From an uncultured Verrucomicrobiae bacterium (GTDB lineage Bacteria; Verrucomicrobiota; Verrucomicrobiia; Palsa-1439): a stretch of DNA of 64,000 nt. The notes under the pieces were generated by a model. The model searched no databases. It worked only from the letters and a program-made list of their open reading frames with translations, and was not told the DNA's origin. The stretch is taken from NCBI GenBank assembly GCA_963812605.1, contig CAWEWF010000008.1, positions 185,107 to 249,106 of the forward strand, given 5' to 3'. Below, piece by piece: positions 26,144 through 64,000 of the stretch. The translations under genes were made by a program, and so were the position numbers. Position 1 is the stretch's first letter. The number at the start of each line of letters is the position of its first letter.

Positions 26144-26259
26144 GCCGGTAGTGCCTTAATTTCCGAATGGGAGGGACGCGCTCCGTCGCGTCCGCTGTCG
26201 TCAACGATCCCGGACGGCTACGACGGAGCGTGGCCCTTGTATCTAGAATTTTTGGTACT

Positions 26260-27427
<1,168 letters not shown>

Positions 27428-27511
27428 AAAGACAGTTGCTCCAGATTAGGGCACCACCAGTAAGCCGGGAAATGGGTTTGCAACAAGTCGGCCTTGAGAT
27501 AATGTTACCGT

Positions 27512-60446: not shown

Positions 60447-61295
60447 TCAAGGTGTCCGGACCAACAGCACGGGGACTGTGGCTTTGCGGATGACATGCGA
60501 GGTGGTGGACCCGAGGATGAGTTCGCGAATGCGTGTATGGCCGTACGCGCCCATGACGATGAGGTCGGCGCCAAGCGTTTCCCGGAGTTGGAGGATTTCC
60601 TCTTCGGGATCGCCATGCAGGACTTCCACTTCAGCCTTGACGCCGTTCCCCAGCGCCCGCTGTTTTGCCTTCTCAAGAACCGCCGCGGCAGCGTCTTCGC
60701 CCCCCAACGCCGCGACCGTTGTAATCGTCACCTTCACTCCCAGGGCCGGGGCCAGCGCGATGCCCGCGCGCAGGGCCTTGCTCGATTCCTCGCTGCCGTC
60801 GTAGGCGATGAGCATATGGCTGATCTCATGAAACTTCTCCGGCGTGACGAGACACGGCTTGACCGATGCGCGCACCACGCGTTCAATGCTGGACCCAAGC
60901 ATCCCATCGGCCCACTCCGCATGTTCGCCATGCTGACCGAGAACGACGAGATCCGCCTGTCGCTCCTGATCAAGGATCGCCTGCACCAGGGTGCCGGTTT
61001 CATGGACTGTCTCGCACGCGACATTGCTTTTACAGGCGCGGTCACCGGCCGCCGCCAGGATCATCGCCGCCTTCTCTTTTTGGATTTGTTCCATTTGCGG
61101 CAGCACGGCGGCGTAGGGCTGCGCGCCGACCGCGCCCGACAAATCCGCCAGCCAGGGACCTTCCAAAATGCGAATGTCCGTGACATACAGCGCCCGCAGG
61201 GAGGCGCTGAGTTTCCGCGCGAACCAGATCGCGTAATCCCCCGCGACCTCGGCGGCGGGTGAACCGTCGGTGCACAACAAAATGCTTTTATACAT
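60447..61295 (-). CDS. Tandem universal stress protein
   Basis: Two USP domains: 'ILLCTDGS', 'LGSSIERVVR', 'AYDGS', 'MGAYGHTRIRELILGSTT'. Confidence 0.92.
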   Translation of the reverse strand: MYKSILLCTDGSPAAEVAGDYAIWFARKLSASLRALYVTDIRILEGPWLADLSGAVGAQPYAAVLPQMEQIQKEKAAMILAAAGDRACKSNVACETVHETGTLVQAILDQERQADLVVLGQHGEHAEWADGMLGSSIERVVRASVKPCLVTPEKFHEISHMLIAYDGSEESSKALRAGIALAPALGVKVTITTVAALGGEDAAAAVLEKAKQRALGNGVKAEVEVLHGDPEEEILQLRETLGADLIVMGAYGHTRIRELILGSTTSHVIRKATVPVLLVRTP

Positions 61296-61405
61296 GGCTC
61301 TCTCCGTTCGCGGCTACCGGCGCTACAACCTGCGTCCCGCACGATGATGACCGCCAAACCACGGCGTTGACAAGGGGGTGTTTTGCCTGTAATGCTTTTG
61401 GTTGC

Positions 61406-61479
61406 GGGCGCTTAGCTCAGTTGGCTAGAGCACCTCGTTTACACCGAGGGGGTCAAAGGTTCAAGTCCTTTAGCGCCCA
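61406..61479 (+). tRNA. tRNA-Val(TAC)
   Basis: Cloverleaf with acceptor GGGCGCT..AGCGCCC-A and anticodon arm CCTCG-TTTACAC-CGAGG; no encoded CCA. Confidence 0.95.
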
Positions 61480-61582
61480 TTCCCTGCAAGCGCAGGGAAA
61501 TTCGAAACTCGAAGCACGAATATCGAAACAGATTTGTTTCGGATTTCGGATTTTGACATTCGGATTTCCGCTGCAAGCGGCT

Positions 61583-61660
61583 GGGGGTGTAGCTCAATTG
61601 GTTCAGAGCGCTGCCCTGTCACGGCAGAGGTTGCGGGTTCGAGCCCCGTCACTCCCGCCA
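61583..61660 (+). tRNA. tRNA-Asp(GTC)
   Basis: Acceptor GGGGGTG..CACTCCC-G-CCA; anticodon arm CTGCC-CTGTCAC-GGCAG. Confidence 0.96.
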
Positions 61661-61795
61661 ATTTCTACTTTGTCTAAGCAACTGATTTGCGGCGGCTGGT
61701 GTCGGATTGGTTGGCTGGGTACCTTTGTGAAACTGTCAAGAGTCAAGGGCCTGTTGCCCAAATGTCTTTTCCGGTTGTAGATACCGTCTTGGTTG

Positions 61796-62773
61796 TCAAT
61801 GGGTCGTTGCATAGTTGGGGTCAAAAGGGGTGGCGTGTTTGAGGACGCCATAAGCCTGGTGCAGCAGTTTGCGCATGACGGCGCCGACGATGACCATCGG
61901 GGGCTTACTGCGTTCCCGCAGCCGCTGGGCAAACTTTTTGAGCAGCGGATTGTAACGCATCGCCACCACCGCTGGCAGATACAGAGCGCGCCGCAGGCGG
62001 GCGTTGCCAATCTTGCTGAGACGACTTCGCCCGCGCACGGAACTGCCCGAGGTCCGCTGTTGGGGGTTGAGCCCCGCATAGGCCACGGCTTGACGGGCGC
62101 TGGACCACTGTGCCAGACCGGACATCTCGGCTAACAGTTTGAGCGCGGTGGTCTCACCGATGCCGGGGATACTTTGCAACAGATCGTTCTGGTGTTGCAA
62201 CCCGGGATGGGTGCGGACGTGTTGGCGGAGACGTTGTTGGAGACAGCGTAATTGCGCGTCCAGATGAGCCAAGTGCTCGCGCAAGGAATCGGCCACCAAG
62301 CTGTCGTCGGCTTCCAGATCCAAACGGTTGCGTTCTTGCTGGCGCATCGCTTGGAGCGCCTCGACCCGACGCACGAGAGCTTGCAGTTGACGCTGTTCGG
62401 GCGGGGGTGGCGTCCAAGGTGGCGTTTGCTGAGTGGCCACGAAGCGGGCGATCAGCGCCGCATCCAAAGGGTCGGTCTTGTTGCGCGACAATTCGCTCTG
62501 GGCGAAGGCGTGGATCCGGGTCGGGTTGATCACGCTGACGCGTAGGCCTTGCTCGTGCAGGAACAGCGCCAGCGCATTGCCATAGGTGCCCGTGGCTTCC
62601 AGGCCGGCGTGAACAAGGCCGGTGGCGTGTTGGCGCAGCCAGGCCGCCAGTTGTGCGAAACCGGTCGCAGAATTGGTGAATTGGCGGTGGCGATAGCGCC
62701 CGTTCTCCAGCAGTAGCGCTGCGTCGAAGCTGCGTTTGGCGACATCCAGGCCCAGCGGGTGATGACTTGTCAT
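61796..62773 (-). CDS. IS110 recombinase/transposase
   Basis: GLDVAK, LEATGTY, NKTDPLDA, SIPGIG, YAGLNP..SGSS, RRALYLPA, AVMRKL. Confidence 0.96.
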   Translation of the reverse strand: MTSHHPLGLDVAKRSFDAALLLENGRYRHRQFTNSATGFAQLAAWLRQHATGLVHAGLEATGTYGNALALFLHEQGLRVSVINPTRIHAFAQSELSRNKTDPLDAALIARFVATQQTPPWTPPPPEQRQLQALVRRVEALQAMRQQERNRLDLEADDSLVADSLREHLAHLDAQLRCLQQRLRQHVRTHPGLQHQNDLLQSIPGIGETTALKLLAEMSGLAQWSSARQAVAYAGLNPQQRTSGSSVRGRSRLSKIGNARLRRALYLPAVVAMRYNPLLKKFAQRLRERSKPPMVIVGAVMRKLLHQAYGVLKHATPFDPNYATTH

Positions 62774-62799
62774 GGTCGTCTCCTTGTGGTTGAGTGTGG

Positions 62800-63010
62800 G
62801 CGGTGGACAGATCGGTTGGCGGGCCGAGCTTGTGCATACAGGTTCACTCCGAAGGCGTTCGGAGGACCTCCGATACCGTTCGGCCTGAGCCGACCACGGG
62901 GAAAGGGATCGAATCTACAGCTCAGGCTCATGGGCCTGGCCGCGCTTACGGATTCACCTTTCCCCGGCATGTCCACCATGGTCGGTTCCCCTACGGGACT
63001 ACAGTAAGGA
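62800..63010 (-). ncRNA. Predicted bridge RNA of IS110 #2 (boundaries approximate)
   Basis: Minus-strand order AAGCGCGGC (62947-39), TGTAG (62919-15), ACGGTATC (62879-72), ACAAG (62833-29) matches the target and donor halves. Confidence 0.82.
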
Positions 63011-63225
63011 CCCATCTGGGCAAGATACAAGCCGCGCTTCTGTGAAGCGCGAGCCGTTCATTTTCCCAATAAAATCTGGTGCTCTGAAAACTTTCGGAGC
63101 GCCGCGACACGAAATCCAATGGATTTCGATTTGGGCAACAGACCCTCAAGCGTTGACCCCCTTTTCCCTTCTGAGGGCATTTTTGTAGGCCCGGCGGCTT
63201 CCTACAGCACTGGCTGGTGGCTGGC

Positions 63226-63558
63226 TCAGAGAATCTTATCCAAAGCGGCAATCAGCGGCGGCAAGTCCTGGGTGACGATTTGCCAAAGGATGTCGAAATC
63301 CACGTTGTCGTAGCCATGAATAAGCCGGTTGCGAAGTCCGACAATCTGTGGCCATGGATGCCGGGATAGCTCACGCGTTCCGGTGGCGGGACACGGCTGG
63401 CCGCTTCGCCCACGATTTCGAGCAGACGAACGAGGGAGAGATTTCAGCGGACGATCGGTATCCAGGTCCGCGCGCGTTCTGCCCTGTGCCATCTGCGCGG
63501 CTTCGCGGGCGGCGTCAAGCATATGCCGTAAACGCGCCGGCGTTTCATGCTGCGGCAT
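63226..63558 (-). CDS. HEPN/DUF86 ribonuclease toxin (internal compensating indels)
   Basis: 'RLRHMLDAA', '[29 protein letters not shown]' with RX4H. Confidence 0.88.
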
Positions 63559-63852
63559 ATTGCACTTCGGCCTCCTCCATTACCCGGTCGCGGAAATAGG
63601 GACTCAGGAACTGCGGTGTGTTCAAATCCACCTTCCGCCCCAACAAATCGGATAGTTCCTGCTCCATCGCAAAGAACGCCAGCCCCGGGACGTGGCCCGG
63701 CTCGAATTCCACCAGCACATCAAGATCGCTATCCGCCGGGCATCGCCACGCAACACCGAGCCGAACACCGCCAATTTGCGGATATGATGCCGTTGGCAAA
63801 ATTCCGCGGTCTGGCGCTGTGGCAATCGGGTGTGGGTCTGATCAGTCCTCAT
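63545..63852 (-). CDS. Minimal nucleotidyltransferase (MNT) antitoxin (frameshifted)
   Basis: '[18 protein letters not shown]', then '[18 protein letters not shown]' in another frame. Confidence 0.88.
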
Positions 63853-64000
63853 GATTCGCTAATTATCCCGCAACTCGCCATGTCTGGCAAGCTGCGCCTT
63901 GCGGGGTAGTTCGTGTGTCGTCCAAGCCCTCTAAGACGGCCTTCGTAAAGGGGTCATAAAGGGGTCAGTCCTTAGTATTGACACTACAGGCCGCAAGCGT

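Follow-up and report, generated by a model that had tools for sequence, protein, structure and literature searches.

A putative IS621-type bridge recombinase element inserted in a repeated palindrome, and its retargeted second copy in the same genome

We analysed a stretch of 64,000 nucleotides from contig CAWEWF010000008.1 (hereafter, the window) and found that its positions 61779-63029, read on the minus strand, very probably (about 90% in our estimate) represent an intact bridge recombinase element of 1251 bp (IS110 family, IS621 type), inserted in a repeated palindrome. The anatomy of the element, its boundaries, the matches of its guides, their covariation and the purifying selection acting on it were observed directly. 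A first-pass annotation of the same DNA had read an IS110 element at this site, and that reading is borne out by the Pfam domains of the recombinase, by its match to IS621, by the end-to-end alignment with a second copy (copy B) and by paralogous empty sites that carry a single CT. Beyond it, we describe here the retargeting of the second copy, a discontiguous right donor guide that matches 7 nt, the handshake bases and the location of the host palindrome within a ~148-bp repeat. Targeting of repetitive extragenic palindromic (REP) sequences, the CT core, the junction promoter and the handshake bases are already part of the published biology of IS621. The coordinates of all features are collected in Table 1.

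We compared the recombinase to known domains and solved structures. It contains a DEDD RuvC-like N-terminal domain (PF01548, E 1.1e-29, 103.7 bits at a cut-off of 29) and a C-terminal Tnp domain (PF02371, E 3.4e-28, 98.3 bits at a cut-off of 21.3). The closest solved relative is the IS621 transposase (8wt6, E 1.5e-73), followed by the ISCro4 transposase (9t56, E 3.8e-71, residues 5-320), which was compared at the protein level only. About 137 of 316 residues are identical to IS621 (43%), as counted by hand in the alignment. The catalytic residues of IS621 are D11, E60, D102, D105 and S241, with G242, as described in PMC11208158, and they align with D10, E59, D101, D104 and S242-G243 in our protein. 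The nearest relatives of the recombinase, 70% and 65% identical, come from Verrucomicrobiota metagenome-assembled genomes, and the host is thus probably a member of the Verrucomicrobiota as well.

We next consider the ends of the element. On the minus strand, the left flank ends with ...AAGCGCGG-CT and is followed by TGTATCTTG, and the right end reads ...ACGGTAT-CT, followed by ACAACC; 17 nt separate the stop codon of the recombinase gene (61796-61798) from the element end. The termini themselves are TGTATCTT... and ...ACGGTATCT, and terminal inverted repeats are absent. In a pairwise alignment, the similarity to copy B starts at CT/TGTATCTTG (CT/TGTAT) and stops at GGTATCT/ACA, and the flanks of the two copies do not align. 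We built an empty site in silico from both flanks, and a genome search with it returned three uninterrupted paralogues whose alignments run straight through the junction. These read ...GAAGCGCGG-CT-ACAACCGG..., with a single CT at the insertion point and no longer duplication. Because the paralogues carry one CT, we count the element as 1251 bp with one copy of the core, located in a repeated site whose CT precedes it and whose ACA follows it, whereas the previously annotated span of 61779-63031 counts both CT copies. Contigs of related elements from a peat metagenome run part from the window at 61774-61776, just past the common ACA. The surrounding ~148-bp composite repeat has inverted termini of its own (GGGYCTGTTGCCCAAAT ... 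ATTTGGGCAACRGGCC) and a second internal palindrome and is MITE-like (miniature inverted-repeat transposable element); one full-length paralogue of it was found.

Table 1. Positions of the element, its parts and related sites (window coordinates unless a contig is named)
Feature	Position	Strand	Basis or remark
IS110-family element, including one CT core copy	61779..63029	-	Homology to copy B begins and ends exactly here; paralogous empty sites; related metagenome contigs diverge at 61774-61776
Recombinase gene, 325 aa	61796..62773	-	Pfam and solved-structure matches
Ribosome-binding site AAGGAG	62780-62785	-	Upstream of recombinase gene
Non-coding left end, 256 nt, encodes bridge RNA	62774..63029	-	Fold energy and conservation relative to copy B
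Target-binding stem-loop (basal stem, internal loop, apical hairpin)	62897..62966	-	Folding; helices 1 and 2 keep pairing despite two-sided changes
Donor-binding stem-loop	62813..62896	-	Folding; two-sided changes at 9 pairs in helices 3, 5 and 6
Left target guide AAGCGCGGC, same sense as left flank plus core C	62939..62947	-	9-nt exact match; left-end positions 83-91
Right target guide TGTAG, reverse complement of CT-ACA	62915-62919	-	Left-end positions 111-115
AU after right target guide, complementary to last two left donor bases, handshake-type	62913-62914	-	Sequence
Left donor guide ACGGTATC, same sense as right end plus core C	62872..62879	-	8-nt exact match; left-end positions 151-158
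Right donor guide AU-(GC)-ACAAG, then C	62828..62837	-	ACAAG at 62833-62829, left-end positions 197-201
-10-like hexamer TATCTT in left end	63022..63027	-	TATNNT-like in 12 of 14 tabulated left ends, TACGTT in the other two
-35 hexamer TTGACA in right end, overlapping recombinase stop codon (61796-61798)	61794..61799	-	Perfect match at an equal offset in 10 of 15 relatives
Left CT core dinucleotide (end of left target half)	63030..63031	-	Sequence and alignments
Right CT core dinucleotide (end of left donor half)	61779..61780	-	Sequence and alignments
Right target half ACA	61776..61778	-	Sequence, empty-site alignment, guide comparison
Palindrome: REP-like hairpin, 9-bp stem, ACA loop; 3' arm is left target half	63032..63052	-	Hairpin scan (stem 63052-63032)
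Left part of ~148-bp composite repeat with inverted termini hosting the element	63030..63145	-	Right part 61748-61778; uninterrupted paralogue G000:C1:218555-218693
Empty-site paralogue	C1:100554-100614		92% over 61 bp
Empty-site paralogue	C14:303171-303228		90% over 58 bp
Empty-site paralogue	C1:218555-218693 (G000)		83% over 147 bp
Other IS110 element of the window	26238-27440	+	Same family and domains

The left end of the element folds as two long stem-loops, in which the guide segments face each other across each internal loop. The minimum free energy of this fold is -100.5 kcal/mol in the studied element (copy A), with a z-score of -3.47 against 200 shuffles, and copy B reaches a z-score of -3.29 against shuffles. 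By searching the 256-nt left end for exact matches we located guide runs of 9, 5, 8 and 5 nt in the expected order; by our arithmetic, about 0.001 occurrences of one given 9-mer are expected by chance in a sequence of this length. The target, the donor and the four guides that the first-pass annotation had listed in order were all recovered at the places where it had put them, with TGTAG read directly in the sequence of the studied element. The search of the left end against the element ends also identified ACAAG as the reverse complement of CT-TGT. When the preceding AU is included, AU...ACAAG corresponds to the reverse complement of CT-TGTAT, and 7 donor bases are thus matched discontiguously, with two guide bases looped out. 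The C that follows the right donor guide (62828) is complementary to the last left target base. In all nine elements with tabulated left flanks, the base located 3' of CAAG likewise complements the last left-target base, as read by eye, with C opposite G in four elements and G opposite C in five.

We aligned ten left ends, comprising copies A and B and eight sequences from other genomes that represent several phyla. The consensus structure holds 31 pairs, 17 of which are changed on both sides. On this consensus 87.4% of the cells are paired, compared with 26-53% after shifting the partners by 1-3 columns, and the observed covariation score was reached by none of 500 shuffles. Helix 4 is the sole helix with no compensatory change. 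It pairs the two donor guides with each other, and we read it as an artefact of their partial complementarity. Among the ten left ends, the left donor guide ACGGTATC is invariant or nearly so and GTAGAT is nearly invariant; in copy B, the exact-match search returned the right target guide as AGCTGTAG. Separately, contigs of two wetland metatranscriptome libraries (runs X15 and X16) cover the bridge RNA region of relatives, corresponding to window positions 62751-62968. Two of these records (14 and 23) overlap the left end in part; their likeness to it is 88-97%, and they differ from it by 9 and 5 letters. They hint at expression of related elements in nature, with carry-over of DNA being possible, and concern relatives rather than this genome.

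We then analysed copy B, which is located on another contig (G000:C4:305341-306595) and was found by genome search to be 87% identical in nucleotide sequence over the whole query. The two recombinases share 90% protein identity. Their dN/dS ratio (non-synonymous over synonymous substitution rate) of 0.09 at a dS of 0.61 indicates long-lasting purifying selection on both lineages. The left ends are identical in 240 of 258 columns (93%), compared with 85% identity in the coding sequence, and are kept far better than silent sites. Five differences between the copies fall within the core of both loops, and three of these map to the left target guide, which reads AAGCGCGGC in copy A and GACCGCCGC in copy B. 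Copy B adjoins ...GACCGCCG-CT, and all three changes in its guide are mirrored in the respective targets. The donor guides and the ends, in contrast to these guides, are identical in the two copies.

The same correspondence between guide and flank was found in related elements. We scored it as a register-free run length, since two groups of sequences were offset by one column, which blurred a fixed-column version. In seven of nine elements with known flanks, the guide region shares an exact run of 6-10 nt with the element's own left flank that ends at the core C, whereas in non-cognate pairs of guide and flank the longest run is 5 nt and the mean 1.65. An eighth element (L011) has a U at the core position and matches its own flank at 8 of 8 non-core bases, and the ninth (L018, a contig consisting of the element alone) has one internal mismatch between guide and flank. 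On the same scaffold, relatives in the same bacterial family carry the left target guides GAGCGCCG, GAGCGCGG, CGCCGTGG and AGCCGTGG, and a search of 47 genomes of the same order also returned GCCTGCGG; these guides match their own flanks with no or one mismatch wherever the left end is complete. Together with copies A and B, at least seven variants of the left target guide thus occur on one scaffold. One of two identical copies in a relative (L038, G015:C2) has the site GATCGCCG opposite the guide GAGCGCCG, with one mismatch. In another relative (L034, G043:C16) the left terminus has been lost and both RNA loops are kept.

A different role for the left-end RNA has to be weighed at this point. 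As a leader or small RNA, it might mainly regulate expression of the recombinase; in that case the protein would recognise the site, and the guide-like matches would merely follow from this. Small RNAs were once proposed to modulate expression of the ISPpu9 recombinase, as mentioned in PMC11208160, and the left end is located directly upstream of the gene. We nevertheless regard such a role as highly improbable, because guides and flanks change together and the scaffold and the protein stay conserved, and because the stems covary and the guides sit in loops. In addition, the RNA of IS621, whose protein is 43% identical, is reported in PMC11208160 to be necessary and sufficient for specificity in vitro. 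A function as a guide-bearing bridge RNA therefore remains our preferred assignment for the left end.

Copies A and B could have arrived separately by horizontal transfer with their guides already set, from relatives that contain the same palindrome superfamily, and would then not have diverged in place. We hold this scenario to be somewhat less probable than not. A dS of 0.61 is large for paralogues within one genome, and the scaffold with other guides is distributed patchily in the order, being present in 7 of 47 genomes (this genome included) and in 3 of 17 other genomes of the genus. The guide variant AGCCGTGG of a relative also has 7 hairpin sites in this genome. On the other hand, copies A and B are mutually nearest among all elements found, their left ends being 94% identical compared with at most 87% for those from other genomes, in what is a thin sampling.

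We investigated the targets to which the two guides point. With a hairpin defined by at least 7 of 8 stem pairs and CTACA directly after it, the genome contains 271 such sites, compared with 2-78 for seven control tails. The stems vary, and the 8-mers preceding CT include GACCGCCG at 10 hairpin sites and AAGCGCGG at 5. Exact target 13-mers occur 5 times for copy A and 12 times for copy B, where by our arithmetic about 0.12 would be expected, and all of them are unoccupied. From these 13-mers and the counts of hairpin stems, copies A and B are aimed at two stem variants of one palindrome superfamily through their left guide, with the right guide reading the common CT-ACA tail. A scan of the genome for Y1_Tnp, the domain of REP-associated tyrosine transposases (RAYT), gave four matches above the cut-off, one of which has a hairpin of this kind within 1.5 kb, and the link between REP and RAYT is weak. 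We also noted 15 densely clustered hairpins (GGCAAGCGGGCCGCTTGCC-CTACAA type) that occur on both strands in about 1 kb of G000:C14:656600-657600. The cluster overlaps a sub-threshold Y1_Tnp match (22.3 bits), and a considerable part of the 42 sites of the commonest stem class, CGCTTGCC, comes from it.

The window contains another IS110 element, which allows for a direct comparison. It uses the donor ACAGTTG-CT-TGTAT and the target CGTGGCC-CT-CCA, which belongs to a different palindrome family, and an exact-match search identified its guides CGTGGCCCT, TGGAG and ACAGTTGC. The genome search found four full copies and one truncated copy at 97-100% identity, and in all five the element follows GGCCACGACGGAGCGTGGCC-CT, with CCA or CCG after it. 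The truncated copy breaks off after 795 bp (G000:C4:364702-365486), and a full-length copy with 98% identity lies on the same contig as copy B (C4:299861-301144). The other element resembles the studied one in its CT core, in the first 7 bases of its left end (TGTATCT) and in the order of its guides. It differs in its recombinase, which is 37% identical, and in its left donor, ACAGTTG as opposed to ACGGTAT, where 3 of 7 bases differ. The claim that the two IS110 elements of the window have different palindrome families as their targets holds in our analysis of guides, flanks and target sites. An evolutionary reading, in which IS110 elements partition REP families as niches, is allowed by these data. 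We see no sign of target-site saturation or competition, since 5 (copy A), 12 (copy B) and 12 exact sites (12-mers, for the other IS110) are unoccupied.

It was also proposed that the two IS110 elements of the window may be orthogonal, and mutual orthogonality of the studied element and the other IS110 is plausible, with recombinases that are 37% identical and left donors that differ at 3 of 7 positions; the same applies to copy B and the other IS110. Copies A and B, by contrast, are unlikely to be orthogonal to each other, given their identical donor guides and ends and their 90%-identical recombinases. Rather tentatively, and with more doubt than confidence, we consider that, in this bacterial family, a single scaffold whose donor module and right target guide (for CT-ACA) stay fixed has radiated into left-guide variants that track the stem variants, and that co-resident copies could share bridge RNAs in trans. 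If this were true, the circle of either copy could land in either stem variant, and copies A and B would not be two orthogonal systems but would share their donor and split their targets.

For transcription, circle formation and present-day mobility of the element, we infer the following sequence of events. By analogy with IS621, the DEDD/serine recombinase would excise the element as a circle. The bridge RNA, encoded in the left end, would be about 200 nt long and contain two internal loops. Guides to the genomic target, in which CT lies between the 3' arm of a REP-like hairpin and ACA, are located in one of them, and guides to the element's own joined ends, ACGGTAT-CT-TGTAT, in the other. 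Joining of the ends would set the -35 hexamer TTGACA of the right end 17 bp from the -10 hexamer TATCTT of the left end, and this promoter would drive the bridge RNA. The complex of RNA and protein would then recombine the circle with the target at the CT core. The sister copy has the same donor module and scaffold, with a left target guide aimed at the other stem variant of the same superfamily.

We examined the junction promoter by joining the ends in silico. This generates TTGACA-17-TATCTT, with 10 of 12 consensus positions matched, whereas the integrated left end together with its flank does not exceed 6 of 12. Among other relatives, the -35 hexamer is matched at 5 of 6 positions in one, is shifted by one base in one and is matched at 3-4 of 6 positions in three alphaproteobacterial copies; the bases directly after the hexamer vary among related elements. 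A promoter scan of 61650-63250 detected no promoter-like site upstream of the left end. The earlier proposal of a promoter formed only on circularisation thus agrees, at the level of sequence, with the gain from 6 to 10 matched positions, but its "only" is too strong, since integrated IS621 loci are described as expressing their bridge RNA weakly (PMC13626964) and since excision needs such expression. We also considered whether the target hairpin (63032-63052) and the T-rich start of the left end (63022-63031, minus strand), which fit a simple terminator pattern, could act as a terminator. We rejected this candidate, with 1 site found compared with 1.9 expected in shuffles; such a terminator, if real, would shield the integrated bridge RNA from read-through.

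Several findings weigh against an intact, working element. The right flank matches the right target guide beyond the core by 3 bases in copy A, compared with 6 in copy B. The assembly, which has 15 contigs and is about 90% complete, contains two copies of this element type, one per guide variant, and with only two copies despite 17 free perfect targets, activity may be low or nil. The promoter consensus that we applied (TTGACA-17-TATAAT) is of the E. coli type and may not fit this host. The contigs of the public runs X1, X2, X15 and X16, from which rare forms are dropped, contained no joints that would mark a circle or an empty site, and the best of the public runs held 0.22 of the sampled words. 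Finally, an Rfam 15 scan of 61000-64000 at E values up to 1 returned no bridge RNA match and only two tRNAs, to which we give little weight.

Some of these findings could be accounted for if the element were a fixed relic that is no longer mobile, with an inactive RNA and recombinase and with guides that match for lack of any movement since insertion. The single copy per guide variant, next to 5 and 12 free perfect sites, and the lack of joints in the public-run contigs would be in line with this. A relic is improbable, however, as the open reading frame is intact, all catalytic residues are present, the copies differ at a dN/dS of 0.09 and a dS of 0.61, and their left ends are still 93% identical. 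Related copies are moreover found in different flanks, both in relatives and in metagenome contigs. We thus favour an intact bridge recombinase element.

We compared the element to IS110-family systems for which targeting has been described. Like IS621 from E. coli (IS110 family, IS110 group; 8wt6), it has the same two Pfam domains, the catalytic D-E-D-D and S-G residues, a left end that encodes a bridge RNA with target and donor loops, and a CT core. Of the 14 donor positions, 13 agree with the IS621 donor oligonucleotide printed in PMC13396178, and the first-pass description of it as near-IS621 is apt, with a single position differing. The discontiguous right donor guide has its counterpart in the nine-on-seven arrangement described for IS621, as do the use of a REP-type palindrome as the target and the promoter rebuilt across the joined ends with its -35 hexamer in the right end (all PMC11208160). 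The AU after the right target guide corresponds to the wild-type handshake guides A81/U82 (PMC11208158).

The differences from IS621 start with the protein, which is about 43% identical, and with the host, which is probably a member of the Verrucomicrobiota here; a blastn search with words of 11 in 5,426 E. coli genomes gave no nucleotide match to the element. The left end is longer, with 256 nt compared with 191 (PMC11208160). IS621 is described as having nine non-core target positions and a donor of 7 bp on the left and 2 bp on the right (PMC11208160), and by analogy with this donor split we take its target to divide into 7 left and 2 right positions. The left target match would then extend over 8 non-core bases here compared with 7 in IS621, and the right target match over 3-6 bases compared with 2. 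Across the defining features of the IS621 type that can be tested in the DNA, the element agrees with IS621 throughout, and the remaining differences are of degree. Going by published descriptions, our element also resembles ISPpu9 and ISPpu10 from Pseudomonas putida, which have REP or stem-loop targets, in that the insertion adjoins a repeated GC-rich hairpin. The target stem-loop itself is reported to add specificity in ISPpu10 (bioRxiv 10.64898/2026.03.19.712850), and in our element the left half of the target is likewise formed by the 3' arm of a hairpin.

Concordance between natural guides and targets across IS110 elements has already been published (PMC11208160), and the existing understanding of how such elements work is unchanged by our analysis. 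What is added is a bridge recombinase element with well-defined limits from a little-studied phylum, which has about 43% identity to IS621. Its two copies in one genome are a clean natural case of a reprogrammed guide. The natural panel of retargeted guides on one scaffold, along with slightly longer target matches, is material for comparing guide rules.

The genes next to the element are of other kinds. Directly upstream of the insertion, two overlapping small open reading frames (63226-63799, minus strand) encode a 110-aa protein with a HepT-like ribonuclease domain (PF01934, 4.4e-15) and an 84-aa protein with a nucleotidyltransferase domain (PF01909, 8.5e-06), which together look like a HepT/MNT toxin-antitoxin pair. 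On the other side, two tRNA genes are located at 61406-61479 and 61583-61657 on the plus strand (Rfam 70.1 and 68.6 bits). About 120 bp separate the nearer one from the element's right end, and most of the depth in the public runs comes from the tRNAs. Beyond the tRNA genes, positions 60447-61295 (minus strand) encode a tandem universal stress protein of 282 aa, in which PF00582 is matched in two stretches (4.3e-47).

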